NCBI GenBank assembly: GCA_034439575.1
Contig: JAWXAQ010000011.1
Span: 1-47,218 of the forward strand
Direction of reading: 5' to 3'
DNA length: 47,218 nucleotides
DNA from: Leptospira sp.
Lineage (GTDB): Bacteria > Spirochaetota > Leptospiria > Leptospirales > Leptospiraceae
Position numbers and translations under genes: made by a program. The notes under the pieces are model-generated. The model ran no database searches. It saw only the letters and a program-made list of their open reading frames with translations, and was not told the DNA's origin. The number at the start of each line of letters is the position of its first letter. The first letter of the stretch is position 1. Positions 31,105-47,218 of the stretch are shown in pieces.

Positions 31105-33138
31105 TTAGAATAATAAATGATAAGCAAATAAAGTTTCATTGTAATGTGGATGGGATGTAAATTCCAAACGCAATTCATGATCTGGCGCGATCGCATAACG
31201 TAATTTCAAACTATTTTGAAAGTAATTTTCATTTTTGCTGGGATTCAAATAGGCATAGGATGCGAACCATAATACTTTGAAATCTCCTATCTCTATTGTA
31301 TAATTGATACCTCCTTGGGGACCATAACGCATACCATAACGAAAGTCAGAATTAGTTTGTGATTTTGCACCAACAAGAAATGATATATTCCCAAAATTAA
31401 ATCCATTTGAGAATTCTCTGGCAAAGGAATAACCCGCCATCAAATCTATGTTACCTACTTGCTTTCTAACTTCAGTTTCTTTGAAAGTTACAGTTTGACT
31501 TCCTATATCAATAAGATAAGAAAACTTTTTAGATAAGGAATTATATGGGGTTAAAGAAAGCAAACGAACCAAATTTATGGAAGTTATTTCTGGTTTTTTG
31601 TTTTCATAATTGCGAATTTGAACATTTAAGAATTGTATTTCTGAATTGGAAAGTAGTCCATTGGATTTATTTAGAATATCATGATATGCGACTCTAATCC
31701 CTGTTTCCATAAAATTCCCATAACTCGAGTTTCCATATCCAATCAAAACCCTAGAAGAACTATGTGCATTATGCGGAGAATCAAAATAATTTATCTTATT
31801 TAGCTCACTTGTTTTCTGTGGTGTTTCTATTTTGGTTTGTAATCTCAATAATTGAAAATAATTTTCATTCGAATTTAAAATTTCAGAATCGGGATATTTA
31901 TATCTATAAAAATCAAGAAGTGCAGAAATTACTTTTTCATTTTCAACTTTTTTTTCAACTTCATCTTTTTTAATCTGAAATAAATCTGAAGATACATTTG
32001 TATCATTGATATTTGAAATTATATTAAAAAATAATTCTTTTTCTTCCTCATTCATTTCTTGTATTTGAAATCTGAATTGATTCCAGAGGGAAGGTCTATA
32101 GATCGGATTTTTCTTAATTGATTCTTTATCACTAACTACAAATTTGAGTAAATCAATAGGCGCATATGTAAACCTATAATAGTTAAAGGTATTCTGATTT
32201 GATTTAGCAATATCTAATATTTTTTCTATCTGATAGGCACAGTTTTCTTTTTGAAAATAGTAATCAAATTCTGCATCACCCATTTCCCAAAGTTGGCGTA
32301 ACAAACTTTCTCTTTCACTATCATTTAAATTGATATCGTATTCCCAAAGATCTCGATTTTCTAAATCATTATATTCATTTACCTTCATATAATAAGGATA
32401 AATAGAAAATTTTCCTTTGTATCCGCCTGTTACACCACCAATCACATAACGAATCCAATCGATGTTTCCAGGATCTGCTGCATATCCCACTCCGTAATCA
32501 AGCAGTTCTGAATTTTGATTTAAATCTTGCCTGAGTTTTAAAAAAGTATGACCAAACATAGATGCGGGTGCTTGCAAGTAATGCGCGGCAAATACGAGAC
32601 GAACTTGTATTACGTTTAAAGTGGATCTCCATTTTTGGAACCTGGGACATTTTTCAAATTCAAAGAATTCTTTTCCCATTTCTAATTTTTCACGTAGCCA
32701 ATGGTAACGTTCTGGAAATTTACATTTTGGTAAAGAATCCAAGTCACTTTGGGTAGAAAACAAAGCTCTTATTGTTGCCATTAATTCAGATCGAGGTTTA
32801 TTTCTTCCCACTTCTGATAAAAAATAACTAGCGCTCGTTATCTCAGATTTATAGTTTCCAAAGATAGATTTGTGATAACGAAGTAATTTTATCCAATGGG
32901 GATCTTTATAAAGTGATATTGAATCTACCTTTTCCAAGTAAGACCTCATAACATTCCTTACATGGAGGTCCGGAGGTTCAAAGAAATCATAGTACACTTT
33001 GTGCGTTTGATTGTTTGAATCTTTTGGCACTTCTAACCTTTCTATAGGTTCATATATTTCATCCGAAGGAATATCGATGGCAAAAAGTGGAAAGATTGAA
33101 AAGAAAATACAAAAATTTAAAATAAAGCGAAAGTTCAA
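31105..33138 (-). CDS. DUF4105 (Lnb-like) domain protein with C-terminal beta-barrel
   Basis: SMFGHTFL, ENRDLWEY, YYFQKENCAYQI; C-terminal aromatic residue. Confidence 0.8.
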   Translation of the reverse strand: MNFRFILNFCIFFSIFPLFAIDIPSDEIYEPIERLEVPKDSNNQTHKVYYDFFEPPDLHVRNVMRSYLEKVDSISLYKDPHWIKLLRYHKSIFGNYKSEITSASYFLSEVGRNKPRSELMATIRALFSTQSDLDSLPKCKFPERYHWLREKLEMGKEFFEFEKCPRFQKWRSTLNVIQVRLVFAAHYLQAPASMFGHTFLKLRQDLNQNSELLDYGVGYAADPGNIDWIRYVIGGVTGGYKGKFSIYPYYMKVNEYNDLENRDLWEYDINLNDSERESLLRQLWEMGDAEFDYYFQKENCAYQIEKILDIAKSNQNTFNYYRFTYAPIDLLKFVVSDKESIKKNPIYRPSLWNQFRFQIQEMNEEEKELFFNIISNINDTNVSSDLFQIKKDEVEKKVENEKVISALLDFYRYKYPDSEILNSNENYFQLLRLQTKIETPQKTSELNKINYFDSPHNAHSSSRVLIGYGNSSYGNFMETGIRVAYHDILNKSNGLLSNSEIQFLNVQIRNYENKKPEITSINLVRLLSLTPYNSLSKKFSYLIDIGSQTVTFKETEVRKQVGNIDLMAGYSFAREFSNGFNFGNISFLVGAKSQTNSDFRYGMRYGPQGGINYTIEIGDFKVLWFASYAYLNPSKNENYFQNSLKLRYAIAPDHELRLEFTSHPHYNETLFAYHLLF

Positions 33139-33142
33139 TTTT

Positions 33143-34081
33143 CTAATTATGATCTGCCAATACTTCTAAATGTATTTTCACTGATTCTGAAAGTGCATTA
33201 AAATCATAGCCACCTTCTAGAAAAGAAATCACTCGTCCTTTGGAATATAATTTTGCTTCTTCCAATATTTTCTTTGTAAATTCTTCAAAACTGGATGTTT
33301 CAAGTAACATTCCACCTAACGGATCATCACGATGTGCATCAAAGCCAGCTGATATTAGAATAAATTCTGGTTGGAATGTTTCCATTTCTTTTTGAAGTAT
33401 TGGCCATAACTTTAAATAGTCACTTTCTATAGAATTTCTAGGCAATGGCAAATTTAAAGTAAAACCTTTTCCCTTACCGATACCTGTTTCTGTTTGTGCG
33501 CCACTTCCTGGATAAAATGGATATTGATGGAATGATATAAAGTAAACTGAGTCATCATGATAAAATTGGTTTTGGGTACCATTGCCGTGATGTACATCCC
33601 AATCCAATATCATAATTTTTTTAATACCATTTGATTGTAAGTATTTTGCGGTGATTGCGATATTATTGAACAAACAAAATCCCATGGCATGAGTGGCTTC
33701 CGCATGGTGACCTGGAGGTCGGTCCATCGCAAATCCATTTTTAATTTGACCACATAAGATTAAATTGGCGAGATGAATGCCTGCTCCTGCTGCAAGATTC
33801 GCTGCCTCAAAACTATGTTTAGAAAATGGAGTATCCCCATCAAAAAAGCCTTTGTTATTTACTAAACAGGATGACTCAACCAAACGAATATAAGTTGGAT
33901 CATGAATCAAACTTATATTTTCTATACCAGCGCTCAAAAAATCCTTTTCCCATTGAAATTTACTACTACTTAAATCACCTAAACTATTTAGTATGGCGCT
34001 TAAGCGACCGCTGGTTTCGGGATGACCCATACCTGTATCATGTAATAAAAATTTTTCAGTAAATGCGATGGCCGTTTTCAT
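33143..34081 (-). CDS. Histone deacetylase family (Zn-dependent amidohydrolase)
   Basis: HPE, RPPGHHA, GFCLFNN, DWDVHHGNGTQ, SAGFDAH, LEGGY. Confidence 0.95.
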   Translation of the reverse strand: MKTAIAFTEKFLLHDTGMGHPETSGRLSAILNSLGDLSSSKFQWEKDFLSAGIENISLIHDPTYIRLVESSCLVNNKGFFDGDTPFSKHSFEAANLAAGAGIHLANLILCGQIKNGFAMDRPPGHHAEATHAMGFCLFNNIAITAKYLQSNGIKKIMILDWDVHHGNGTQNQFYHDDSVYFISFHQYPFYPGSGAQTETGIGKGKGFTLNLPLPRNSIESDYLKLWPILQKEMETFQPEFILISAGFDAHRDDPLGGMLLETSSFEEFTKKILEEAKLYSKGRVISFLEGGYDFNALSESVKIHLEVLADHN

Positions 34082-34097
34082 AAATCAGAATATATCA

Positions 34098-34673
34098 CTA
34101 TTCGAATTTCATAAATCGTTCTATATGAACAATCATTTCAACTATCTCTATCGCAATATTATCTAAACTCTCTGCGATACCTAATTTTTCTTCAGATGAA
34201 ATTTCTCTATCAAGTGAAGCATTGCCATATTCTGTGAGAAAGGCTCTTATTTTTTCACTTAGGATCTCATTAAACCATTCTTTGAAATTATTGATTTTGA
34301 TTTTATATTCAGGTGCCAGAGATCCGCTTAACTCCCAAATAGATTTTTCGAGAAATCTAAATTGTATGCGAAAGTGTCCTTTCCCCTTCTCAGCTACCGC
34401 TATCGATTGTTCTGGAACAAAATCAAGTCGCCTCATCATGACAACTATGGTGAGCAGTTTCTCTAAAGAATCGATCAGTTGGCGTTTTTCTTGCCCCGTA
34501 ATTTTAAAATCAGGCCCGAGTGAATTTAGATATGTAGCCGCAATGCCTTTAAATTGTCCTGTGAGTGATTGAATTCGCTCTTTGAATTGGCCTTCCTGGC
34601 TCAGTTCCTCGTCAAAACGACCAAAAGATTTCAAAACGTAATCGGAAGAAATTTCTATCATGTTAATTACCAA
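34098..34673 (-). CDS. Hypothetical helical protein
   Basis: 191 aa ORF co-oriented with the HDAC gene. Confidence 0.65.
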   Translation of the reverse strand: MVINMIEISSDYVLKSFGRFDEELSQEGQFKERIQSLTGQFKGIAATYLNSLGPDFKITGQEKRQLIDSLEKLLTIVVMMRRLDFVPEQSIAVAEKGKGHFRIQFRFLEKSIWELSGSLAPEYKIKINNFKEWFNEILSEKIRAFLTEYGNASLDREISSEEKLGIAESLDNIAIEIVEMIVHIERFMKFE

Positions 34674-34771
34674 TTGAAAATACTAGTCAGCTTTTTTGCA
34701 ATCGTCAATCGAATCGATTGGATTTCCTGGTTCTTTTTTCCATTCTGTCCAAAAGAGTCGTTCGATACCTT

Positions 34772-35743
34772 ATGCAAAAATATATTTTACTTCCATTCAT
34801 TTCAATTCTCCTGCTATTCCCTTCATGTTCTACATCGCAAGAATTTGGGGAAAAAAACACTCGTTACACACTTGCAAAGAACAAGGATGTTCCTTCTTTT
34901 ATCGAAGGGCTATATATTAATACCAAAACCATTCGTGATAAAAAGTATTGGAACGTTTTATTTACAGCGATGCAAGAACATGGAATGAATGCCGCCGTCT
35001 TGGATATGCAGCCCTACCCCCCATCCAAAGAACAAGTAGAAGATTTAAAAACCAGAGGTATTTATCCAATTGCCCGCGTTGTTAATTTCGAAGGGGGTCT
35101 CATTGAAAAATCACCGAATCAGAATCTCATGACTTCCATCCAAAAAGCAATTCGTACTGCCTGCCAAAACGGATTTAAAGAAATTCAGTTGGATTACATT
35201 CGTTATGCGGATGGCGGGACAAATTTTAGCTTGAGTTATGAAAAACGATATGAGAGTATTTTAAAGATTATAAATGAACATAAAGAAAAAACCAAAGATG
35301 TATGTGGATCTGATGTGGAATGGTCTGCTGATATTTTTGGTCGAGTGCCGTTCATTGAAAATGATGTGATAGGCCAAAGAGTTGAACCCTTCAGTGAAAA
35401 TCTGGAAGCACTCTATCCAATGTTATATCCGTCTCATTTTTATGGTCTTTCAAAACGAGTTGCCGATCCTTATGGAACTATCAAAGACGGTTTGGATCTG
35501 ACAATCAAAAGGGCCAAACCAGGCACACGTGCCCTTGCATGGATCCAAGGATTCAAAATGATGATCGGACCGAGTAAACTTAGTTACAAAGATTACATTA
35601 AAGTACAGATGCTAGGTGCCAAAGATTCGACCGGCCACGGCTTTATCGTTTGGAATGCTGGAAATGATTATTTGGAAACTTTCCAAGCATACGCAGACTA
35701 CCAATTAGAAAAAAATAGCCCGCGTAATAAAAAGGAAGAATGA
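34772..35743 (+). CDS. DUF4015-like putative glycoside hydrolase lipoprotein
   Basis: LFPSC lipobox, YPIARVV, EIQLDYIRY, PMLYPSHF, WIQGF; start reassigned to 34772. Confidence 0.8.
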   Translation: MQKYILLPFISILLLFPSCSTSQEFGEKNTRYTLAKNKDVPSFIEGLYINTKTIRDKKYWNVLFTAMQEHGMNAAVLDMQPYPPSKEQVEDLKTRGIYPIARVVNFEGGLIEKSPNQNLMTSIQKAIRTACQNGFKEIQLDYIRYADGGTNFSLSYEKRYESILKIINEHKEKTKDVCGSDVEWSADIFGRVPFIENDVIGQRVEPFSENLEALYPMLYPSHFYGLSKRVADPYGTIKDGLDLTIKRAKPGTRALAWIQGFKMMIGPSKLSYKDYIKVQMLGAKDSTGHGFIVWNAGNDYLETFQAYADYQLEKNSPRNKKEE

Positions 35744-35771
35744 AATTCAAATACAATTGAAATATGTATGA

Positions 35772-36803
35772 TTAATTAGTTTCTTCTTCCAAAAGTCTTC
35801 TACGAGAATAGGCCTCTGCTTCTTCTGTCCCGAAAAATTTAACTCGCAGATCGTTTAGCTTTTTTTCTTTTTCCTTTTCACTTATGGAAGGATTAGCAGA
35901 TAAAAAATCGCGTTCTTGTTTTTCATACTCAGAAATTCGATTTTTTGCTTCGACTTCATCTTTTCTAAGTTTGGATAATTCTAATGCCTTTTCTTTGCCA
36001 AAATATTTTGTTTCCAAAGTATTTAACTTTTTCTCTTTATCTTCTGGAGAAAGACCAGCACCAAATTCGCGTTCTCTTAAAGCTATCTCAGTTTGATAAT
36101 GATCATATTTGTCTTCACGCCCGACGACAGATTCATAATAGGATCCATATGTTTTTTTCTTAAGTTCTTCAAATTTTCGAACTCTATCATCTGGATTCAT
36201 ATTTTTTGTGGACTGGATAAAATTAGATGAGCCTTCTAAAAATTGCACTTGGGCTTCTTCCATCCCAAATATTAAATCCGATTTTTCATCCCCCATAATT
36301 TCTCGGCGTTTGTTTTTGAGAATATCATAACGGTCTTCAAATTTTACATCCGAGGAAATTTCTAATTTGTGAATGGTTTGTTCATATTTAAAATAACTTT
36401 CAAAAAGTTCTCTCAGTTTTTCTTTGCTCGGTGATTCATAATTGGCATCAATATAAGCAAGCAAAGTCTGATTGCACTGATCTGCCGTATAACTTTTGTC
36501 ACACTTTTCTCTGAGAGCCCAAATCTCCCAAACAAAATTAATCTTTCCAGTTTTTAAATCTTCAATGATTTCGAGATAACTTTTTGGGTCTTCGTCGCGA
36601 AACGGAGACAATGCCTCATCCCAAAATTGAGAATTGTTTCCTAGAGGGTGTAAATTTGGATCTTGATTCAAAGCTTCTCCATCCTTGCCATTTATTCCAT
36701 TTGTGATAGAGGAATCTACAGTGAGAGATCTTGTGATCAAAAATAAGACTAAGATAGCAACAATTCCGATGCTAGTATAAATGATTAGATTTTTTTTGTT
36801 CAT
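35772..36803 (-). CDS. Lipase-specific foldase (Lif-like) 1
   Basis: N-terminal TM anchor, helical body (LFESYFKYE, IFGMEEA); directly downstream of the lipase. Confidence 0.75.
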   Translation of the reverse strand: MNKKNLIIYTSIGIVAILVLFLITRSLTVDSSITNGINGKDGEALNQDPNLHPLGNNSQFWDEALSPFRDEDPKSYLEIIEDLKTGKINFVWEIWALREKCDKSYTADQCNQTLLAYIDANYESPSKEKLRELFESYFKYEQTIHKLEISSDVKFEDRYDILKNKRREIMGDEKSDLIFGMEEAQVQFLEGSSNFIQSTKNMNPDDRVRKFEELKKKTYGSYYESVVGREDKYDHYQTEIALREREFGAGLSPEDKEKKLNTLETKYFGKEKALELSKLRKDEVEAKNRISEYEKQERDFLSANPSISEKEKEKKLNDLRVKFFGTEEAEAYSRRRLLEEETN

Positions 36804-36818
36804 TGCTTGTTAAATAGA

Positions 36819-36845
36819 AAAGGTTGTGCAAAATGCACAACCTTT
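36819..36845 (-). terminator. Stem-loop between lipase 1 and foldase 1
   Basis: AAAGGTTGTGCA-AAA-TGCACAACCTTT 12-bp stem. Confidence 0.65.
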
Positions 36846-36872
36846 CTTTCCAAAATGGAATTTTAGTTTTTC

Positions 36873-37784
36873 TTAAAGAGCAGCTTTTGCGTTTTTCGCA
36901 ATGTTCAAGTACCAGCCTGTCACATTGAAAAAACCTTGTCCACTCCACTCTAGGTTTGTCGCTTGCAAATGGTCGATGCCAGTAGCATACCAATAAGAAG
37001 GCGCCTCACCTTTGTAAGCTCCCCATTTTTGAGAAGACAATGGTACCACACCATCATTCGCACCGCCCATACCATAGAACAATCCACCTGCCCATGTGAT
37101 TGGGTGAGTGAGTGCCATAATCGGGTGTTGGATGAGGTCTGCCCAAGCCATTGCGTTGCCATAAGAATAATATTTCATACCCGACACGTTTGGTGAAGCA
37201 GTATTAAATGTTTTCAAGTAGCTTACTGTTAGAGATTTTCCCATAGCGATTACGTCTTGAGGACGACCATCGCGGTATACAAGTCTAGCGAGTAATGATA
37301 ACGCTGAATTTGCGAAAGGCTGTAACCAACCAGGTATGATTCCGAGTACGATATCTGCCATAGGTGCACCTTTGTGAAGTGAATCTACCGTAGTTACCGT
37401 TGCTGTTTTGGAAGCAAATCCGAGATTTGAAACCATATAGCGTATCACGAGTCCACCTTGAGAGTGACCAACCAACTGAACCTTAGAACAACCGTTTGCA
37501 GTCATCCAAGAACTTACTGCAGATTTAATCTGATCAGCACGAACGGGAATGCTGTTAGTTGCCGAACTTCCAGGAGTCGTTACTTTAGCACCTTGTGATC
37601 TAAGGTAGGCATCTAATCCACCCCAATACTTCACAAGACCACCAGCAAGACCTTTCGTATCATCAAAGCCGAGAATCCCATGAACAAGCGCTATGCACTG
37701 GCCATCAAGTGGTCCAGCAAATAGGCCCGCAGAGGGAGCCACCAAAAATAGGGTTAAAATTCCAGTTACGATTTTCTTTTTCAT
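36873..37784 (-). CDS. Secreted lipase 1 (family I-like)
   Basis: Signal peptide, LVHG, GHSQGG, NDGVV, DHL; start at 37784. Confidence 0.92.
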   Translation of the reverse strand: MKKKIVTGILTLFLVAPSAGLFAGPLDGQCIALVHGILGFDDTKGLAGGLVKYWGGLDAYLRSQGAKVTTPGSSATNSIPVRADQIKSAVSSWMTANGCSKVQLVGHSQGGLVIRYMVSNLGFASKTATVTTVDSLHKGAPMADIVLGIIPGWLQPFANSALSLLARLVYRDGRPQDVIAMGKSLTVSYLKTFNTASPNVSGMKYYSYGNAMAWADLIQHPIMALTHPITWAGGLFYGMGGANDGVVPLSSQKWGAYKGEAPSYWYATGIDHLQATNLEWSGQGFFNVTGWYLNIAKNAKAAL

Positions 37785-37958
37785 ATACTCATCCTTTTTT
37801 TCTTTCAATTGCCAAAAGTGTGTCATGTGACCAAAGATTGTCAAGGAAATTCCACAAAAACTTATCCAAATGGATAAAGTCTGAACTTTTCGGGATTTTT
37901 GTTCATTTTAGATACCAAAATGTATGTAAAATGTGGCAAAGTGTTTAGCTGAACAGCA

Positions 37959-38996
37959 TTAGTTTATACCGAAATTGCGCTCTTCTGGGGAGCGAAAGTA
38001 ACCGGAGGCTTCTTCATTTTTGATTATTTCTGCCTCTTCGCCAAAAAGTTTTGTGCGCATAACATCGATTTCTTTTTGTTGCTCTGGGCTAATCGTTGTT
38101 TTGTTGCCATAAAGTTTGGTTCTTAGTTCTTTGTATTTTTCCAAATTTTGCCATTTGGTCTCTCTTTCATCCTCCAAAGCATCCCAACGATTCAGAGCAG
38201 CTTGGTCCATTCCCATGGCTTCACGAATATCCCGGAGAGTCGATTTTCTGGAATCGTAGGACATGGTCTTGAGATCTTTTTGAACTGAACTAATAAAACC
38301 TTCGGTGAGAGTTTGTTGTCTTTTTTCTAAGACTTGTGGTAATTCTTTTCCAAAATTTTCTTTTAAAGTTGATTTGAAAGAATTGAGTTTGGCATCCACA
38401 TTTCCAGTAGGACTTTCCTCAATCCGCTTGAGGGCATCAGAAACATTTTGCATTTTCTTTTCCATAGCCCAAATCTCATCTGCTTTTTCACCAAACAGAC
38501 GATAACGCTCTTTCCACATTTCTTTTTTTCGATCAGAGTCAGACATAAGTCCAAGGCGAGTCATATTGTTTTCGCGAAATTTATTATAAGAATATAATTT
38601 TTCCGACATTCGAAATAATTCTAATGCTCGATCTGGAAAGGCAAGATTCAATATTTCGTGCAATTTTTCTACCCAATTGTCTGGATATAATTTGGGAAGA
38701 TCTTTCATTAACTCTTCCAGAAGTGCAATTTGTACACGAGCATTGTCTATATTTTTACCATACTTTTCCAGCATAATGCGAGCAATTTGCTCAGGCGTTA
38801 GTTGATTGAAATCTATGTCTTCATAATTTTCGGGCAATTCTGGCAAGTTACTGCTATCATATACTTTTTTTGATTCAGATAATTCTTTAAATTTATTTGT
38901 CGTTTCATCATTGCGATTGCGAAGGAAGAGTATCGACAGGCAAAGGATTGTAATAAGCGCTAAGCTAATATAGATTAGATTTTTTTTTTGGAACAT
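37959..38996 (-). CDS. Lipase-specific foldase (Lif-like) 2
   Basis: TM anchor plus helical body (RYRLFGEKADEIW, AALNRWDALE); downstream of lipase 2. Confidence 0.7.
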   Translation of the reverse strand: MFQKKNLIYISLALITILCLSILFLRNRNDETTNKFKELSESKKVYDSSNLPELPENYEDIDFNQLTPEQIARIMLEKYGKNIDNARVQIALLEELMKDLPKLYPDNWVEKLHEILNLAFPDRALELFRMSEKLYSYNKFRENNMTRLGLMSDSDRKKEMWKERYRLFGEKADEIWAMEKKMQNVSDALKRIEESPTGNVDAKLNSFKSTLKENFGKELPQVLEKRQQTLTEGFISSVQKDLKTMSYDSRKSTLRDIREAMGMDQAALNRWDALEDERETKWQNLEKYKELRTKLYGNKTTISPEQQKEIDVMRTKLFGEEAEIIKNEEASGYFRSPEERNFGIN

Positions 38997-39029
38997 ATGT
39001 ATTTATATTTTTATTCACCAATAGAAAAG

Positions 39030-39054
39030 AAACAGGCGGTAATTTTTTACCGCC
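39030..39054 (-). terminator. Intrinsic terminator-like hairpin between lipase 2 and foldase 2
   Basis: Minus strand GGCGGTAA-AAAA-TTACCGCC-TGTTTCTTTT. Confidence 0.65.
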
Positions 39055-39065
39055 CGGAAGAGGAA

Positions 39066-40178
39066 TTAACCGCCTTTAGTCACAATGAATTCTAAGATAG
39101 AAGCATAGAATTCGTTTTCATCAAATGTATCTGGTGGAATACCAACTACATCCAAATGATCTTGGCTGATTACAGATGCTTTTGAAGTCATCTGAGTTGA
39201 AGTTGGAGCATTTAGATTACTTACATAACCTGGCGCTGTATTCACAGTAATCGTATCAAATGATAGAAGATTTTCATTGTATTGTAGTCGATCTCCCATT
39301 TGTTGAGAATTGATACCAACAAGCCCGTCATCATCGTTGTTAGTTTTATTTCCGTCGCCTTTTCCTGCTGCACCATCATTATCGCAATCATCTAAACAAT
39401 ATCCATCACCATCAATATTGTAAAAAGCTTGTTTCACAAGGAAGAGTGCTGGATTCACATTGATCCCTTCTTGTGCTGTGATCAAAGAACCATGGTAAGC
39501 TGCATTTGTAGAACTCACGTTGTAATTTGTGTTAAATGCTTTCATTCCAGTGGTTATACCATCAGTTGATGAATAGTCATTGTATACTAATTGTTTCGCG
39601 GCTGCAATGCCATCACTACCAGAATTATAGATCGTGTTTCCAAAAAGAGTCGCAAGTGCATTGATCACAGACACAACACCTGGCTTGAGATCCAAAATGT
39701 ACTTAGCCATTGGAGATCCTCTATGCGGACTAGAAACTGAAATCAAGGCATGAACCACTTGACGACCGTATCTCGCACGTAAAACAGAAGCCGCTTTTCT
39801 CGCATCAATTCCACCTTGTGAGTGACCAATGATGTTTACTTTCGTTGCACCAGTTGAAGTCATATAGTTTTGGATTTTATCAGCTAACTGAGTTCCACGA
39901 ACTTCTGAAGATTGGAAAGGAGTGACGGAAGCCGCCAAAGCTTTTTGACCTGAATGAATGCTTCCATTGCAACTAACTTCTAGAAATTCATCACAAGGAT
40001 CGCCTACGAACACGCCGTAGTCGTCTCCAAAGTAAAAATATCCAAGTAAGTTATCAAATCCCGAAAGTCCATGAGCGAAGACAACCGGGTATAACGTCTT
40101 TCTCGCACCAGCACTCAAACTCGTAGCTAACGAGAGCAGTGCGATCGAGAGTAACAAAAGTTTTTTTATGTGACTCAT
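39066..40178 (-). CDS. Secreted lipase 2 (family I-like)
   Basis: Signal peptide, YPVVFAHG, VNIIGHSQGG, SPHRGS, DDGLV, DHLD. Confidence 0.92.
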   Translation of the reverse strand: MSHIKKLLLLSIALLSLATSLSAGARKTLYPVVFAHGLSGFDNLLGYFYFGDDYGVFVGDPCDEFLEVSCNGSIHSGQKALAASVTPFQSSEVRGTQLADKIQNYMTSTGATKVNIIGHSQGGIDARKAASVLRARYGRQVVHALISVSSPHRGSPMAKYILDLKPGVVSVINALATLFGNTIYNSGSDGIAAAKQLVYNDYSSTDGITTGMKAFNTNYNVSSTNAAYHGSLITAQEGINVNPALFLVKQAFYNIDGDGYCLDDCDNDGAAGKGDGNKTNNDDDGLVGINSQQMGDRLQYNENLLSFDTITVNTAPGYVSNLNAPTSTQMTSKASVISQDHLDVVGIPPDTFDENEFYASILEFIVTKGG

Positions 40179-40711
40179 AATTCACCTCAGGCGCAATCAT
40201 GTAGCCAATTGACCCACAAATCAAGTTAATTTTGTTAATTATGCAACACTTTTGACTTATTTTTCGATATTTGTGTCATTTTGCTTCCGTTCGGGCTTTT
40301 TTCGGACATACATTTAGGGATTTCGATAAATATAAAGTGGAATTGAAAGTTGGTTTTTCCAAAGACTTAAAATTCAAAATTCTGAATTTGGGAATAAAAC
40401 TTTGTAATTTTCTACTTGGGGGATGCCCTATTAAGCGCCAATTATCTAAAAATTCAGGTTATTGGAAGTAAACCTCTAAAATTATTTATATTAAAATTTA
40501 ATTCAAAATTCAGCCAATCATTTAACTTAATTTAGACGAACGTACGCTTTACAAGATAGGACTTTGAATATTTGGATGGAGAGCTTAAATATTTAAATAT
40601 TGGACTTACTCACAATGAAAAACGAAAATTACATATGAATATTTACTTATTTTAATATACGGAAATTCAATTATCTGTTGTCAGCTTGGATTGTATTATC
40701 CACCTAGAAGA

Positions 40712-41608
40712 ATGGGAATATTGAAAGATAATATGATAATGGATATGAAAGTCCACGGGTATTCTGAAAAGACGATTAAAACGTACACGAATTGCATTCA
40801 AAGACTCGCATACTATCACAAGAAGTCTCCTTTGGATATGAATGAAAAGCATATTTATGATTTTTTTCTCTTTCTAAGAGAAAAGGAACTTACGGAAGCC
40901 TCAATAGGTATTTATTACAGCGCCATCCATCTGTTTTGTGTATTTTTTGAAAAAAAAGGGATAATGGAGAAGATACCTGTTCCGAAAAGGAGGAACAAAG
41001 TAGTCGTTGTATTGAGTCAAAATGAAATGGTATCAATTTTAAATCATTGTAAAAGTTTAAAAGAAAAAGTAATATTCACGATACTTTACTCCACTGGAAT
41101 TCGCATAGGTGAATTAGCCAAATTAATAGTAGGTGATATCGATTATGATAATCAATCAATTCTTATCAGAGAAGGAAAGGGCAATAAACAACGTTATGCT
41201 CTCTTGTCAAACTCTACTGCAATCTTGTTAAAACAATTTATCGCTTACTCAAATCCTTCATCCTATTTGTTTTACTCAACGAAAAAAGGAAAAGAATTTC
41301 CCATCAATGTGCGCTGGATTCAAATGCGACTCAAAGAAATCGCCAAAATGGCAGGTATTAAAAAAAGAATAAAGGTGCATACTTTGCGACACACCTTCGC
41401 CACTCATCTGTTAGAAGATGGATACAATATTTTTTATATTCAGAAATTACTTGGTCATAGTACAATCAATAGCACTATGGTGTATTTGCATGTAAATCCC
41501 AATCACCTATTACAAATACCCAGTCCCATAGAAAAAATTAGAAATGCAAAAATGAATATATTCGAAAACCAAACAGATTATGGACTTAATTTAGAAATAA
41601 ATTATTAA
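40712..41608 (+). CDS. Tyrosine recombinase/integrase with N-terminal SAM-like domain
   Basis: Catalytic R (GIRIGE), K (GKGNK), HTLRH, LGH and Y (MVYLH) all intact; no IntI-type insertion. Confidence 0.93.
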
Positions 41609-41610
41609 GT

Positions 41611-41706
41611 GCAAATCTTGTTCCCATATCACTTCCCTCTCACTTCCGTGTTCGAAGGAAGGATTTCGATATGCATGTCTCCGTTACCGATGGAAACGAG
41701 ATTTGC
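41611..41706. repeat. Module A copy 1 (96-bp foldback)
   Basis: GCAAATCTTGTTCCCAT ... ATGGAAACGAGATTTGC terminal inverted arms. Confidence 0.85.
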
Positions 41707-41709
41707 TAA

Positions 41710-41846
41710 CCGAAGAAGGATCGATTAACTATATTTTTATTTAAAAAAAACGTCTAAGAATAATTAAATTTATGTACAATTTGTTGTTAGCCTCGAGGAA
41801 AAAAATCCCAATCTAATAAGGTGGATTTTATCGTAGTACGTATAAA
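41710..41846. repeat. Module B copy 1
   Basis: CCGAAGAAGGATCG...TTGTTGTTAGCCTCGAGG...AAGGTGGATTTTATCGTAG; recurs at 46165 and 46561. Confidence 0.85.
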
Positions 41847-41958
41847 CGTCGGTTACGCGTATTGTTTGCAAAACCTAACTAAAATTTAAAGTAGTATCAG
41901 ATTAGAAAGGCAGAAAAATGTCTTGAATTATACGAAGTAGTATCGTATCGTCGATCGT

Positions 41959-42174
41959 ATGAAAGTAACTGCAATATTACCAGATGAATTAGTGCTAGAT
42001 ATTCAAAAATATACAGATGGAAAAAACATTACTGATTCGCTTCAAAAAGCTTTATCCGAATGGCTAAAACTAGCAAAAGTCAAAAAACTGAATGAAAAAT
42101 TGAAAAAAATTCCTCTACAGTTTACAGATGGCTATTCCGCTGAGAAAGTCAGAAAGATTAATAGAACTAAATGA
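41959..42174 (+). CDS. vapB: Antitoxin (DUF2191/VapB-like)
   Basis: 71 aa MKVTAILPDEL... with ATGA overlap into a PIN toxin. Confidence 0.8.
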   Translation: MKVTAILPDELVLDIQKYTDGKNITDSLQKALSEWLKLAKVKKLNEKLKKIPLQFTDGYSAEKVRKINRTK

Positions 42175-42572
42175 TTTTAGTTGATACATCTGTATGGATT
42201 GAATTTTTCCGAGGTAATGAACCCTATTTTACAAAATTAAAGGAATTGATAGAATCATCTGATGTCTTAGCTCATGAAGTAATCTTTGGTGAACTATTAC
42301 AGGGTTGCAAAAATAAGGCTGAATTAAATTTCATTTTAGAATATTGGGAAAGTTTAAGCAACATTGTATCAAATGGATCCTTCATTCTAGCTGGGAAAAT
42401 TTCATTTGAAAACAAACATTTAGATAAAGGTATTGGAATCATTGATTCAATTTTAATCAATGAAACGAGACAGAATAATTTAAAAATTTGGACGTTAGAT
42501 AAGAAGATATTAAAATTACTTGAACCTAAATACGTCTTCGAAAAAAAGCCAACAATTCCTTTGGCTTATTAA
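42171..42572 (+). CDS. vapC: PIN-domain toxin
   Basis: MILVDTSVWIEF, GELLQG, IIDSIL, IWTLDK; C-terminus runs into module C. Confidence 0.92.
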   Translation: MILVDTSVWIEFFRGNEPYFTKLKELIESSDVLAHEVIFGELLQGCKNKAELNFILEYWESLSNIVSNGSFILAGKISFENKHLDKGIGIIDSILINETRQNNLKIWTLDKKILKLLEPKYVFEKKPTIPLAY

Positions 42573-42685
42573 AACTTTCACGAATCAAACCCGGCGATCT
42601 TCGGAGGAAACGGAGCAAGACACCTTGCTCTGGTTCCGAGAAGGGGACCACGATAGCGAGTCCCGGACTTGCCGGACACGCTTGC
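42541..42685. repeat. Module C copy 1 (5S terminator + 5S 3' end + multi-hairpin)
   Basis: AAAGCCAAC..TTGGCTT...AAACCCGGCGATCTTCGGAGG...CACGCTTGC. Confidence 0.85.
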
Positions 42686-42690
42686 AAATT

Positions 42691-42786
42691 GCAAACCTCG
42701 TTCCCATCTCCCTTCCCTCTCACCTCCGTGTTTGAAGGAAAGACTCCGACATCCATGTCTCTGTTACCGATGGAAACAAGGTTTGC
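42691..42786. repeat. Module A copy 2
   Basis: GCAAACCTCGTTCCCATC ... GATGGAAACAAGGTTTGC. Confidence 0.85.
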
Positions 42787-42875
42787 ATGCCAAGGAGAAA
42801 GATTGAAAAGCTGGATCTGTATTATTAGCTAGGGCACCTCGGATGTGTTATATGGATGTAGCATTTTCGAAAGAC

Positions 42876-42962
42876 CCGATCCCGCTCTCCGCTACAATCT
42901 TTCGCATAACTTTATGAATATGTATTTTATTTTAATCGGGAAAGGATTTCCGCTTCGATCGG
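42876..42962 (+). repeat. REP-like bipartite palindromic element (copy 2)
   Basis: CCGATCCCGCTCTCCGCTACAATCTTTC...GAAAGGATTTCCGCTTCGATCGG. Confidence 0.7.
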
Positions 42963-43185
42963 TGGTTTCCATATGCGTCCTTCGGAGATTGAAGTCGAAA
43001 GTCCTTTTCGTCTTACTTATGTTCGATTCGCTTCGCTCCTCCACCAAGTCAAACTTTCAGTTTGCTTGAATCCTCGCTCCTATTGTCGCTACGGAACGAT
43101 CGGTGGTGCGTTGCGTTTAATCGTATTGCGTAAAACACACAAAAATATTTTAAACCAGTATCCCGTTCTTGGAGGTCTTTACCCG

Positions 43186-43282
43186 GCAAACACTCGTTCC
43201 CATCTCGGGGCTTTCTCGCACTCCTGCTCGAATGCCCCCGCTTTGCCTTGCTGGCTTTGCTAACTATGGAAACAAGGTTTGC
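43186..43282. repeat. Module A copy 3
   Basis: GCAAACACTCGTTCCCAT ... ATGGAAACAAGGTTTGC. Confidence 0.8.
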
Positions 43283-43451
43283 TTGCCCGAAGAAAGATTG
43301 GTTACCTATATTTTTATTATTAATAATTTCACCTAGCATGAACTTTATTGATGAAACATAAGTTGGTAAACCTGAAGGGCTTTTTGATGAATTGGATTTT
43401 ATCCAATTGCGAATAAACGCATGTTAGCCGGCATTTCAGTAGACCCATTTA

Positions 43452-43688
43452 TTGAGAAATTGTAAAAGGAAGAAAAGTATTACTTTTGGAGCAGACGAAA
43501 GGGCAATCGAAAAAGCTCGAATTAAAGCAAGTACGCAAAAAAGATCCTTAAATGACTTATTCAATGATTGGCTTCGTAGATATTCTGATTCTGAACCGAA
43601 AGGCATTGATTTAGATAGTTATTTAAAAAAATTCGAATATGTAAAAATATATAAAAAAATCACATGTGAATAAGCAAATGAAAGGTAA
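43452..43688 (+). pseudogene. Degraded RHH-type antitoxin
   Basis: KSITFGADERAIEKAR...SLNDLF motif; no ATG start; in-frame TAA at 43671 interrupts the KITCE*ANER* tail. Confidence 0.6.
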
Positions 43689-44118
43689 GGTTTTCATTGA
43701 TACATATATCTTGATTTACATCTTCTCTAGAACGGATTTAGAAAAAAAAGAAATCTCTTCAAATATCATAAAAGCATCATTCAAATCTGATAAGTTTTAC
43801 ATAAGCTACCAAGTCATCCAAGAATTTAGTAATGTTATGCTCACAAAAGGTAAACCACCAATAAAGAAAGATGATATTTCAAGTTTTATTGCTAAAATTC
43901 TTGAACCGATGTGCTCATTTTATCCATACATAGATTTTTATAAAAATGCATTAAAATTAAGAGAAAAAAATAAATTGTCTTACTATAACTCTTTAATATC
44001 ATTAGCGGTATTAGAACTTGATTGTGATTTCCTATTATCTGAAGATTTTCAGGATGGAGTTAAGATAAATAAACTCAAAGTTCTTAACCTCTTTAAAAAC
44101 AGTAATCAAAAGGTATAA
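43678..44118 (+). CDS. PIN-domain toxin, probably degenerate
   Basis: VFIDTYILIY, QVIQEF, LSYYNSLI, LLSEDFQDG; Asn at a normally acidic PIN position. Confidence 0.8.
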   Translation: MKGKVFIDTYILIYIFSRTDLEKKEISSNIIKASFKSDKFYISYQVIQEFSNVMLTKGKPPIKKDDISSFIAKILEPMCSFYPYIDFYKNALKLREKNKLSYYNSLISLAVLELDCDFLLSEDFQDGVKINKLKVLNLFKNSNQKV

Positions 44119-44142
44119 AATTCTCTTTTATAATGCAGATAC

Positions 44143-44204
44143 GTCGGCTAATACGCTCCGCTCGGGACGGTCGCCCTAGTTCGTTATGCGCCATTGCATT
44201 AAAA
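44143..44204. repeat. attC-like site 1
   Basis: CGGCTAA...CGCTCGGGA...GCCCTAGTTC-GTTATGC; direct repeat of 44780-44824. Confidence 0.6.
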
Positions 44205-44261
44205 ATATTTAATGATTTATTTTACAAGAAGAAGACCAAAAACTTTAACTAGGAGATATAA

Positions 44262-44733
44262 ATGAGGAATTCAATAATCAGAGGATTATTCCGACATTCA
44301 ATTGAATTTTGAAAATGCTATACAGAAGGACGACGGAAAAGAATTCTATATGATTAATCTTGAAACAGAAAAACTTGATCCTAATGCTAAAACATCTGAT
44401 CTTTCGTATGCAAAATTAGTTCTACCCATGCTAATCAAGAGAGGGTCTTTTCCTATTTATGTTGGTTCATTCTTTTCTACTATTATAGGGGATTTTGGAA
44501 AAGGAATTACAAGAGTAGCAATCGTGAGATATAGATCATTGCGCGATTTCCTTGATATGAATGCTGATCCAGATATGGTAAAAGGTGCCCCCTTCAAATT
44601 CGCGTCTCTTCAGCACACTGAAGTATTTGCTACAAAACCAACAATTACTTTATTAACTATTCGTACTACTTTTGCTAGTTTATTGATTTTTGTTTATTTA
44701 CTCGTTCTAAAATTATTAAAAAAGAGTAAATGA
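44262..44733 (+). pseudogene. Frameshifted DUF1330-like cassette gene
   Basis: Strong RBS (AGGAGA) and ATG at 44262 stop at 44312; the body (FYMINL, VAIVRYRS) continues in the +1 frame. Confidence 0.6.
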
Positions 44734-44754
44734 ATTTTTGTCTACCTTATCGAG

Positions 44755-44824
44755 TTTTAATGCGACGGCGCATAACGGCGGCTAACACCCTGCGCTCGGG
44801 ATTTATGCCCTAGTTCAGTTATAA
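44755..44824. repeat. attC-like site 2
   Basis: GGCGCATAAC...GCCCTAGTTCA-GTTATAA; 5' part is an inverted repeat of 44183-44204. Confidence 0.65.
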
Positions 44825-44826
44825 AT

Positions 44827-45042
44827 AAAGCCAACTCTTCTGTTGCCTTATTAAATCTAATAAGGATTAACACGGCGACCTTCGGAGGAAACAGAGCAAA
44901 ACATCTTGCAAATTGCAAACCTTGTTCCCATCTCGGGGCTGTCTCGCACTCCTGCTCGAATGCCCCCGCTTCGACATCCATGTCTCCGTTACCGATGGAA
45001 ACGAGATTTGCTAACCGAAGAAGGATCGATTAACTATATTTT
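44827..45042. repeat. Module C copy 2 (internally deleted) + module A copy 4 (44915-45011) + start of B
   Basis: AAAGCCAAC...CACGGCGACCTTCGGAGG...CTTGC joined directly to AAATTGCAAACC. Confidence 0.8.
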
Positions 45043-45411
45043 ATTTTAAATAATGGCACCACTTGCTTGTTAGTTGAATTGGCATATTTTACTTATAAAC
45101 AAGTTCTTTTACCAAATGACGGAATGCTTAATTAATGGAGGTGGTTTTGCGGGGCGTTTTATCGTATTGCGTAAAACACTCGCGAATATTATCAAATAAC
45201 CTTCATACCGTTAGCGAAGGATTTCTTATGTAAGAAGAAACAAATCTTTTGGAAAATTAGTTTCAAATTATTTATAAAATCGAAATCTAATACTTGATTT
45301 GCGGACGATCAAGGAATAAAAAATTTTAGTGTTTCGTGAAAATTTATGTATAAACGAATAAAACATCTGCCATTGTAATTTTTTCGAGGTTCAGTTAAGT
45401 CTCAAAGCTTT

Positions 45412-45996
45412 TCACTCGAATGAAAAAGAATACAAAAAGCATTTTTCTCGAAATCCATTTGGACAGCGAAACATAAAATCAACATTCCTAGATGATGTAT
45501 TCGGTTTGGAGTATCTTCCTCCGAAAAATGCAACGTTAACTTTTCTGCCATTGCCAGCAGAGGTTTCATCCATAGCTATGAATCGAATTTCTGGCGACTT
45601 TTCTAGCCAATAAGAAGGGGATTGAAAATAATTGTTCTTTTTATTTGTGCCATCTAATACAGAAATTCGCTCTTGAAGAATGTCTGAATCAAAGAATAAG
45701 TCACACAATGAGATGTTATATGTTTTCTCCTGGTGATTATTTGACTGACTGAATTCACCGGCTATTCCCTCTCCTAAACTAAAATATACTTTTTCATCTA
45801 GAACTTTCTTAATGAGATTACAATCCCTAATCTTTATAATATTGAGAAACTCATTGAATTTCTCCCCTTCACCTAACTCTTTATCGATAATAATTTGTTG
45901 AGTCTTTGGGGCACTTTGTAAATCCTGCGCATCTTTTGATTTCGAGCAAAAAGTGAAGCAGAGCATATAAATTAATGTTAAAGTTAATCGTTTCAT
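45412..45996 (-). CDS. Hypothetical lipoprotein
   Basis: MKRLTLTLIYMLCFTFC signal/lipobox, AGGA RBS. Confidence 0.75.
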   Translation of the reverse strand: MKRLTLTLIYMLCFTFCSKSKDAQDLQSAPKTQQIIIDKELGEGEKFNEFLNIIKIRDCNLIKKVLDEKVYFSLGEGIAGEFSQSNNHQEKTYNISLCDLFFDSDILQERISVLDGTNKKNNYFQSPSYWLEKSPEIRFIAMDETSAGNGRKVNVAFFGGRYSKPNTSSRNVDFMFRCPNGFREKCFLYSFSFE

Positions 45997-46164
45997 TGTT
46001 TATTTCCTATCCAGTGATCGTAAAAATCCCTAAGTAACAACTTTGTTTTTCCATGTGGCTCAAAGGACTTTATATGGTTTTAGGTCTTTCATTCAATCCA
46101 ATTTTCTTTGGTGTAGCTCCCAAAAAGGTTCCTGTTGGTAAAAATTGTTTGGCGGGGTCCTTGC

Positions 46165-46851
46165 CCGAAGAAAGATCGAATAGCTATATTTTTACTATAA
46201 AAAATAACGTCTGACAAATGTTAAATTTATGCACAATTTGTTGTTAGCCTCGAGGAAAAAAATCCCAATCTAATAAGGTGGATTTTATCGTAGTGCGTAT
46301 AAATGCCCGTACATATAAAAGCCAACTTAAATTTGGCTTTTATACACTTATAAGTTCAAACCCGGCGACCTTCGGAGGAAACGGAGCAAGACACCTTGCT
46401 CTGGTTCCAAGAAGGGGACCGCGATAGCGAGTCCCGGACTTGCCGGACACGCTTGCAAATTGCAAACCTCGTTACCATCTCGGGGCTGTCTCACACTCCT
46501 GCTCGAATGCCCCCGCTTCGCCGTCCTGGCTTCGCTTCCGATGGAAACAAGGTTTGCTTACCGAAGAAAGATCGATTAACTATATTTTAATTTAAAAAAA
46601 CGACTAACAAACATTACATTTACTTAATATTTGTTGTTAGCCTCAATGAAGAAAAATCCCATTCTTATAAGGTGGATTTTATCGTAGTGCGTATAAATGC
46701 CCGAACATAAAAAAAGCCAACTATCCAATTGGCTTTTAAACACTTATAAGTTCAAACCCGGCGACCTTCGGAGGAAACGGAGCAAGACACCTTGCTCTGG
46801 TTCCGAGAAGGGGACTGCGATAGCGAGTCCCGGACTTGCCGGACACGCTTG
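46165..46851. repeat. Tandem cargo-free units B2-C3-A5-B3-C4 (396-bp period)
   Basis: CCGAAGAAAGATCG at 46165 and 46561; CCCGGCGACC at 46361 and 46757. Confidence 0.9.
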
Positions 46852-46865
46852 CACGCTCTTCAAAC

Positions 46866-46931
46866 AAAAAAAGCGAAGTTCTGCAACCTCGCTTTCTTAA
46901 ACAATAATGACGAACCCGGCGATGTCCTACT
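46866..46931 (-). repeat. Exact 19-nt copy of the 5S rRNA 3' end with its own terminator-like hairpin
   Basis: AACCCGGCGATGTCCTACT at 46913-46931 = 47109-47127; preceded on the + strand by AAAAAAAGCGA...TCGCTTT. Confidence 0.8.
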
Positions 46932-47064
46932 TCCACCCCCACTCGCTAATCCGCTCCGCGGGCGAGTGTCCAAGCCTTGCTCCCTATGGGTCGCAAGTCT
47001 GTCAATTCGCGAACCATAGGTTTTTAGTAAATTGGGTTCGCTCAATGAATTTGATTTTGTACAT

Positions 47065-47093
47065 AAAAAAGCCAACTAGAAGTTGGCTTTTTT
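47065..47093 (-). terminator. 5S rRNA intrinsic terminator
   Basis: AAAAAAGCCAACT-AGA-AGTTGGCTTTTTT. Confidence 0.85.
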
Positions 47094-47108
47094 ACACTTA
47101 TGATTGCT

Positions 47109-47218
47109 AACCCGGCGATGTCCTACTCTCCCATTGAGCGAACCCAATAGTACCATCGGCGATGAGAAGCTTGACTTCCGTGTTCGGAATGGGAACGGGT
47201 ATTGCCTTCTCTCCATAA
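47109..47218 (-). rRNA. rrf: 5S ribosomal RNA (5' end a few nt beyond the window)
   Basis: Minus strand CCCGTTCCCATTCCGAACACGGAAGTCAAG...CGCCGATGGTAC...GAGAGTAGGACATCGCCGGG. Confidence 0.97.

Follow-up and report, generated by a model that had tools for sequence, protein, structure and literature searches.

At one end of contig JAWXAQ010000011.1 of Leptospira sp. (assembly GCA_034439575.1), a tyrosine recombinase gene is followed by an array of repeat modules and cargo genes that runs up to a 5S rRNA gene (rrf). The whole contig, C11 of this genome, was analysed over its 47,218 bp and is called here the window; the genome has 4.1 Mb and 36% G+C, and the contig end falls inside the 5S gene. 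The reading that we favour, by a modest measure, is that three things meet in this region: an rrf-trailer array present throughout the genus and mixed with mosaic repeats, integron-type cassettes at the junction of module B, and an unrelated phage-type integrase brought alongside. An earlier note on this DNA had described a gene-capture platform driven by the adjacent recombinase. Array, fixed junction, integron-type cargo and the non-IntI nature of the enzyme hold good; the integrase as engine probably does not. The closest homologues of this integrase are named Leptospira in their source records.

The order of modules and the positions of cargo described in that note were reproduced by repeat search, BLAST against the genome and nhmmer. 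From the integrase onwards come A1, B1, vapBC, C1, A2, F/G, A3, b, a second toxin-antitoxin pair (TA2), a short attC-like site and a broken gene, followed by another short attC-like site, C2, A4, G2, a lipoprotein-like gene on the minus strand, a partial A, B2, C3, A5, B3, C4, X and the 5S gene (Table 1). A 10-nt core of the 5S 3' end, AACCCGGCGA, occurs seven times in the window at no more than one mismatch, six of them in the array; about 1.04 occurrences are expected in the window and none of 100 shuffles reached seven. The array is indeed built on repeats of the 5S 3' end, as had been proposed.

Table 1. Features of the array and its surroundings (positions in the window unless another contig is named; ORF, open reading frame)
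Feature	Position	Strand	Basis or remark
Tyrosine recombinase, XerA-like, Leptospira LE1-phage type, accessory, single copy	40691..41608	+	Pfam, NCBIfam, PDB, BLAST
A1, copy of dispersed structured repeat A (three-way junction)	41607..41750	-	nhmmer, RNAalifold
B1, rrf-trailer module; plus-strand 3' end is the cargo insertion point	41752..41852	-	motif scan, junction alignment
Cassette 1, vapB-like (41959-42174) and PIN/VapC-like (42171-42572)	41853..42552	+	PIN 39.5 bits; starts TTACGC after G41852
C1, structured rrf-trailer module ending in 5S 3' core	42586..42690	-	alignments, covariation
A2	42687-42832
F (Rfam Flavo-1, 42874-42970) and G, dispersed mosaic modules	42833..43190	-	Rfam, nhmmer
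A3	43189-43330
b, copy of B	43382-43423
Cassette 2 (TA2), antitoxin-like ORF (43452-43673) and PIN toxin (43666-44118)	43424..44183	+	PIN 25.1 bits; starts TTAGCC after G43423
Cassette 3, broken gene and short attC-like site (44768-44824: R'' GCATAAC, R' GTTATAA)	44184..44818	+	homologue P0121
C2 (3' 46 nt only)	44867-44912
A4	44905-45055
G2, dispersed mosaic repeat	45056-45400		nhmmer
Lipoprotein-like ORF, 194 aa, codirectional with 5S, between G2/A4 and partial A/B2	45412..45996	-	ORF list
Partial A	46158-46205
B2	46209-46309
C3	46357-46462
A5	46452-46601
B3	46601-46703
C4	46753-46858
X, second rrf-trailer module	46905..47062	-	alignment of 9 copies from 8 genomes, G000 (this genome) included
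Hairpin beta1	47064-47094		beside 5S gene rrf(1)
5S rRNA gene rrf(1), truncated by window end	47110..47218	-	RF00001 74.2 bits; complete in L171, 90.8 bits
Fifth copy of B	C28:55894-55983

Structured modules behind the 5S gene

Modules C and X were followed through the genus. A covariance model of C (R1), built from 27 copies, has one to five matches in each of 38 of the 40 other genus genomes. In the ten genomes with located rrf genes, 30 of 36 matches are found downstream of a 5S gene at no more than 0.8 kb; the remaining six are two at a site in G028, two at a contig end of G020 and two partial matches of 36 nt. Seven genomes were inspected, and in all of them C and X stand directly behind 5S genes in varying number and order; further C matches and X-like matches are present in the rrf trailers of G024 and G030. 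No integrase was found in the ORF lists of two such regions, from G019 and G016. We therefore regard C and X as modules of rrf and not of the integrase.

Both modules are conserved as structures. In C, 96.6% of cells are paired and 13 of 28 pairs have changed on both sides, a count that none of 500 shuffles attained, and slid controls gave at most three such pairs. X is conserved in the same manner, according to the nine-copy alignment. Neither has a match in Rfam, where a search of 46300-47070 at E<=10 gave chance-level matches only. The idea that C is a relative of 5S rRNA was dropped, no such kinship being detectable in Rfam, although C has about 110 nt, a three-way junction and 5S-like ends. 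If our reading is right, covarying structured modules trail every 5S gene of the genus and end in a copy of its 3' terminus.

One stretch of X (47030-47050) is, over 17-22 nt, the reverse complement of an internal 5S segment (47131-47155) and is kept in eight of the nine aligned copies; judged by this complementarity, RNA read through X could pair with 5S rRNA.

Behind each 5S gene of the genus stand one to five such modules, and each unit is made up of a trailer, for which there are two terminator types, a body and the core GCCGGGT. From locus to locus 5S, X and C exchange their trailer types (G063, G010), and the core of C follows the 5S end of its own genome, being GTTGCCGGGT in relatives and TCGCCGGGTT here. 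At its end X repeats 19-28 nt of the 5S 3' terminus (46904-46931); C shares only 7-10 nt with it. A 196-bp unit containing X (46913-47108) is a strain-level indel, missing in contigs of sequencing runs X5 and X10 with joints from 46912 to 47109 and from 46906 to 47103; in X5, 19 nt fit both sides, and the joint lies inside the 5S-end repeat. X is thus flanked by direct repeats of the 5S 3' end and shows presence/absence polymorphism, in the manner of integrative elements at RNA gene ends. No cognate integrase was found linked to C or X in the rrf regions of G019 and G016, and C occurs in 38 of 40 genomes, the window-type integrase in 17 of 36.

Species, strains and the two rrf loci of a single genome vary in how many units they have and in what order. 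Because of this variation, the swapped trailers and the position of the X indel joint in the core repeat, we regard the rrf trailer as a dynamic, core-bounded tandem array throughout the genus. Recombination between the cores and trailers that they share would add and remove C and X units. For this turnover homologous exchange or gene conversion seems to us a better candidate than site-specific recombination, given that the core of C follows the 5S 3' end of its own genome. A single island of 6.8 kb bounded by 5S repeats was also considered and discarded, as there is no copy of the 5S core to the left of the integrase.

Cargo cassettes and their junction

The B motif, ATTTTATC(N3-7)CG[TA]ATAAA, occurs exactly five times in 4.1 Mb, and B, a module specific to this genome, was found only in rrf trailers. 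In three copies B passes directly into the terminator hairpin, in the other two into cargo. The two cargo blocks begin exactly where B ends on its 3' side, as G/TTACGC (vapBC) and G/TTAGCC (TA2), where the slash marks the junction; the second block ends with an attC R' box, G/TTATAA, directly before the hairpin, and empty B junctions contain no GTT. Alignment of junctions therefore confirms the claim that cargo sits at one fixed place, between the B 3' end and the terminator hairpin, in two of five copies. This is a real and precise insertion point, and it is the strongest point for the model of the earlier note. The fifth B copy stands at the end of contig C28 (C28:55732-56033; cf. L128-L131), where a gene start, A, B and hairpin succeed one another and then the contig stops; this is probably the trailer of a second rrf.

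Cassette 1 starts 245 nt after the integrase stop codon, a distance made up of modules A1 and B1, and its adjacency to the integrase is secondary. It has lost its own attC and stop, and its reading frame continues into hairpin beta5 (42546-42567). The VapC product has 133 aa here, against 126-128 aa for most relatives, and its frame runs to 42570-42572, within the trailer hairpin. Over 41852-42552 the vapBC block is 88% identical to G030:C17. In four relatives (G005, G014, G025, G027) vapBC lies inside arrays of attC-like repeats of about 170 nt, beginning CGCATAAC, ending GTTATGCG and spaced 830-1100 nt apart, and in G030, on a small contig, one such repeat stands upstream. The pair thus adjoins attC-like repeats in five fetched relatives.

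Cassette 2 has a short attC-like site at about 44133-44189 (R' GTTATGC) and an 85% copy at C7:104654-105343. Homologues of TA2 are flanked by the long attC-like repeats in four of 13 fetched loci; G016 has three identical copies 25-49 kb from its integrase gene. In both pairs a PIN toxin gene follows a small antitoxin ORF and overlaps it, by 4 and 8 nt, as is typical of VapBC/PIN type II toxin-antitoxin systems. Both toxins exceed the Pfam PIN cut-off of 23.6 bits; VapC reaches 51.8 bits on the NCBIfam VapC equivalog, whose cut-off is 80, and Pfam and NCBIfam scans gave no family match for the antitoxins.

The frameshifted gene of cassette 3 is real: P0121 (195 aa) aligns to it in two different frames, with residues 1-10 at 44262-44291 and residues 44-185 at 44272-44697. 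Members of this family have about 195 aa, and the copy here has suffered an internal deletion of about 33 codons and a change of frame. No homologue was found in 40 genus genomes.

The two short attC-like sites of the window share their 5' and 3' boxes with the family of about 170 nt. With the attC profile at E<=0.01 they were not found in the genome scan, and in L171, a contig of another assembly, one of them reaches E=0.003. What had been taken for attC-like sites are, then, short relatives of the attC-like family of the genus; their folding is discussed below. That the cargo is of integron type is upheld by the presence of the toxin-antitoxin pairs in long attC-like arrays of relatives and by the kinship of the short sites with that family.

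In relatives these arrays accompany a second integrase family of 363-376 aa, 34-36% identical to the window integrase in four matched copies. IntI4 is its best PDB match, a stretch of 61 aa in IntI4 being represented by 35 aa, and the family scores below the cut-off of the IntI profile. Such loci belong to saprophyte-group Leptospira (L145-L156, e.g. L145:1174-2277 and L148:1186-2277; L137, L139, L140, L158, L160). The integrase points toward a spacer, and the attC-like arrays with toxin-antitoxin cassettes lie beyond it; the spacer ends GAG/TTA in six of 12 loci (TTATRYG in five, TTAGCTG in one), and an attC-like repeat follows in four of 12. The present genome keeps about eight scattered long attC-like copies.

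The three cassettes may have entered B 3' ends through recombination of attC with a secondary site. The IntI-like family of the genus would be the likely catalyst, because such enzymes flank cassette arrays in relatives. If so, an rRNA gene trailer can receive integron-type cassettes at one precise site that is not attI, and Leptospira possesses integron-like cassette arrays next to an IntI-like integrase whose extra domain is shortened. We found no report of Leptospira integrons in the literature searched, and Treponema is given as the only spirochete clade known to carry integrons in a 2013 paper on the integrons of Treponema (PMC3607928).

The integrase and the rearrangement beside the array

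The integrase of the window has 305 aa, an intact reading frame, a SAM_4 N-domain and a Phage_integrase domain (PF00589, 144 bits). Its stop codon (41606-41608) lies 2 nt from the first repeat module, as originally noted; the A profile matches from 41606 and the outer stem begins at 41611. Classified from profile scores and PDB matches, the enzyme falls outside the IntI clade, in agreement with the earlier note. It reaches 231 bits on NCBIfam XerA_Arch (cut-off 220), 162 bits on the IntI model TIGR02249, in two stretches (cut-off 265), and 109 bits on PRK15417 (cut-off 435); its nearest solved structures are XerA (4a8e, 123 bits, and 5hxy), followed by IntI4 with 102 bits in two pieces. Neither profile nor PDB comparison revealed an IntI-specific insertion or extra domain.

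Homologues at 51-59% identity are present in 17 of 36 sampled genus genomes, and a Leptospira phage integrase is 56% identical; no second close copy was found in this genome. Because these homologues are patchy and so diverged, while the lipase beside it keeps 81-89% identity throughout the genus, the integrase is an accessory gene that diverges fast. The closest species representatives, G024 and G030, have no match to its family, and their rrf trailers do carry C and X. Eight extended loci of its relatives contain no detected 5S gene, A, B or C, and no attC-like repeats were found near window-type integrases in 25 fetched locus records (17 genomes, eight fetched twice). Matches on plasmids, merely 37-39% identical Clostridium enzymes, were set aside as uninformative. 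In two relatives, G028 (L062) and G005 (L063), the window-type integrase is a neighbour of rRNA genes, 363 bp downstream of a 23S gene and at a distance of 1.5 kb from a 16S 3' end; this may be chance or a link of the family to rRNA gene ends.

Repeat A, the module next to the integrase, has 33 nhmmer matches in the genome, six in the window and 27 elsewhere beside ordinary genes, where copies often form same-orientation clusters fused to F. Modules scattered over the genome had been named in the earlier note as an outcome that would refute its model, and A is scattered in this way. The 5' edge of A abuts an ORF boundary in four of 26 full copies, so the 2-nt gap between integrase and A1 is nothing special.

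How the integrase came to stand there is indicated by comparison of gene order. In a related lineage (L172/L173) a 75%-identical integrase occupies the same site beside the lipase. Homology with the window ends at 41611, 3 nt past the stop codon, no 5S, A, B, C, X, F or attC was found within 8 kb of that integrase, and 2.5 kb beyond it lie genes matching C33:48528-43637. Synteny of the window with G024 and G030 ends at about 40264-40331. In G024 the lipase is followed by the same block (C33a), and the rrf(1) trailer by genes matching C33:51444-62543 (C33b). In the present genome an A copy (C33:50983-51105) connects blocks C33a and C33b, the integrase is linked to the rrf(1) trailer via A1, and the upstream flank of rrf(1) is contig C24. 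Since the lipase-C33a and rrf(1)-C33b pairs of G024 are reshuffled here with A at both joints, the adjacency of integrase and array goes back, on present gene orders, to a reciprocal rearrangement whose two new junctions both contain A repeats.

The integrase is probably a bystander which does not run the array, because L172/L173 hold it at the same locus without array, rrf or modules. The claim that it does run the array finds no support in this locus or in G024 and G030, with C and X and no integrase; nor is a link between the two supported, C being present across the genus regardless of the integrase and the adjacency being explained by rearrangement. The XerA-like phage-type enzyme adjoined the lipase before the array did, and the later rearrangement brought the rrf(1) trailer alongside. 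A recombinase 2 nt from a repeat array can, if this is true, be a product of rearrangement and not the engine of the array.

The gene blocks that follow the two rrf copies have changed places between G024 and G030, for which reason we take rrf loci to be rearrangement hot spots.

Competing readings, related systems and dispersed repeats

Several points weigh against the reading that we favour. The sequence integrase, 245 nt, G/TTACGC mimics the integrase-attI-G/TTATRCG loci of the genus, a likeness that could exceed coincidence, and two independent cassette insertions at the same B base argue for a true site and not for a random secondary one. The IntI-like family gave no match in this genome, where the window integrase is the only XerA/IntI-like enzyme besides Xer-like genes. 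Folds of the short attC-like sites are not better than those of shuffled sequences (DNA z 0.27, -0.13, 0.47, 0.11). Homologous and site-specific exchange at the 5S core look the same at the sequence level. Finally, synteny in G030 is unlike that in G024, the lipase being followed by other genes and C33b standing after rrf(2), so that the ancestral gene order is not unique.

Comparison with chromosomal integrons, in particular those of the 'same-direction' Treponema denticola type with intI toward attI, cuts both ways. Shared features are small promoter-less cassettes including toxin-antitoxin pairs, cassette edges G/TTRRRY, attC-like boxes of the RYYYAAC...GTTRRRY type and an integrase pointing toward the cassettes, and related Leptospira genomes hold the long attC-like arrays beside an IntI-like gene. 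In contrast, the window integrase lacks the IntI insertion and stays below the IntI cut-off, there are three cassettes only, one without attC, and they lie inside rrf-trailer repeats with an empty site devoid of GTT and an integrase juxtaposed secondarily.

Some of the points raised above also speak for keeping the XerA-like integrase of the window as a working cassette recombinase, with A1-B1 as an attI-like site, the other B copies as duplicated attI and capture at the B 3' end. The order integrase, 245 nt, G/TTACGC, vapBC parallels integrase, spacer, GAG/TTA, cassette in six of 12 loci of the IntI-like family, both cargo blocks begin at the same B base, this family is not found in the genome, and the enzyme combines a SAM_4 N-domain with 162 bits on the IntI model. 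We nevertheless consider this amended form of the earlier model unlikely. The 75%-identical integrase occupies its locus without module or cassette, and among its relatives neither the 25 locus records (attC-like matches) nor the eight extended loci (A, B, C or 5S) offer what the model expects. Adjacency follows from rearrangement, B beside a terminator hairpin also occurs at the end of contig C28, probably a second rrf trailer, without integrase, and A likewise abuts the stop codons of other genes.

A broader proposal is that the 5S 3' end of saprophyte-group Leptospira constitutes a site-specific capture system. C, X and C-A-B cargo units would move at the 5S core, the B 3' end would be attI-like, and XerA-like integrases without the IntI domain, namely the window enzyme, the IntI-like family or both, would do the work, which would amount to an integron-like platform tied to rRNA. 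It has, in our opinion, a small chance of being correct.

The C, X and cargo units may instead be CIME-like mini-elements, inserted site-specifically into the 5S 3' core, mobilised in trans by a tyrosine recombinase (XerCD, the LE1 type or another) and accumulated by tandem accretion. All units do share the build of trailer, body and core; X repeats 19-28 nt of the 5S end, and contigs of two runs lack it precisely; the exchange of trailers behind 5S, X and C is what integration at the core predicts; and unit number and order vary between loci and species. The parallel is with islands at tRNA and tmRNA 3' ends and their tandem accretion, where direct repeats of the RNA gene 3' end likewise bound the units, each unit re-supplies the gene end and terminator, and presence/absence polymorphism is seen. 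Here, however, the target is a 5S rRNA gene, and the units have 150-400 bp, no integrase and a genus-conserved, covarying structure; integrase families are not known to target rrf. Moreover, C and 5S share a core of only 7-10 nt, unequal crossing-over or slippage yields the same products, conservation throughout the genus with strong covariation suggests a function of their own (as RNA or folded DNA) and not selfish spread, and no copy away from rrf turned up, all those checked (30 of 36 matches in the inspected genomes) following it. This explanation seems to us rather improbable.

An assembly artefact across repeats of 85-95% identity in a metagenome bin, suspected because in the run that covers the region best Logan contigs end at each copy of A, B and C and because A4 alone among A copies mixes two inner-hairpin types, is highly improbable in view of the 621,816-bp metagenome contig L171 from another assembly, which is 100% identical to window 32691-47218 (14,528 nt) and runs on through a complete 5S gene into contig C24. 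Since L171 is identical and continuous through the 5S gene, the block order described above is probably real as sequence, resting on two assemblies that possibly share reads. Single Logan contigs, moreover, each span one local adjacency: integrase-A1; B1-vapBC-hairpin-C1; and b-TA2-attC-gene-attC-hairpin-C2. Most joints in run contigs (from 41621 to 42691, 42786 to 46563, 42899 to 44914 and 46252 to 46676) were at first candidates for excisions and turned out to be paralogous loci (the C28-type A-B locus, F-A units) mapped onto the window. Low-depth contigs of runs X6 and X10 have mostly the same cargo as the window; one X10 contig differs upstream of 44281 and skips from 44945 to 46528, with the joint within A repeats.

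The lipoprotein-like ORF owes its label solely to an N-terminal signal-like sequence judged by eye, and gave no Pfam or NCBIfam match.

As for the dispersed modules, the minus strand of A folds better in all 25 copies compared, two conserved C.A mismatches on the plus strand becoming G.T pairs on the minus strand. An AAC...GTT outer stem and same-orientation clusters made A a candidate attC analogue; copies beside housekeeping genes, and tandem A-F units 213-320 nt apart without an intervening ORF, led us to reject this. A4 is the sole copy of 25 aligned with a GGGGC-type first and a GACAT-type second hairpin, and is either a recombinant of two A haplotypes or an assembly join.

The REP/BIME elements of Escherichia coli, pneumococcal BOX and Neisseria Correia elements are mosaic intergenic repeats that A, F, G and G2 appear to resemble. 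The resemblance extends to copy number, intergenic location, strong folding, variable order, tandem clusters and rearrangement junctions, and the sequence families are unrelated. Besides A, nhmmer matched F 23 times, G six times and G2 nine times in the genome.

F belongs to the Rfam family Flavo-1 (RF01705), with 53.5 bits on the minus strand against a gathering score of 42. Flavo-1 is listed as a Bacteroidetes small RNA candidate in PMC2864571, and a preprint (10.1101/2023.03.29.534852) reports it as one of the unannotated transcripts of Leptospira. Here the motif is a dispersed repeat, often in tandem same-strand F-A units (e.g. C22:29000-29558, C35:36075-36209 and window 42833-42971), a behaviour that fits a repeat or folded-DNA element as well as a small RNA gene.

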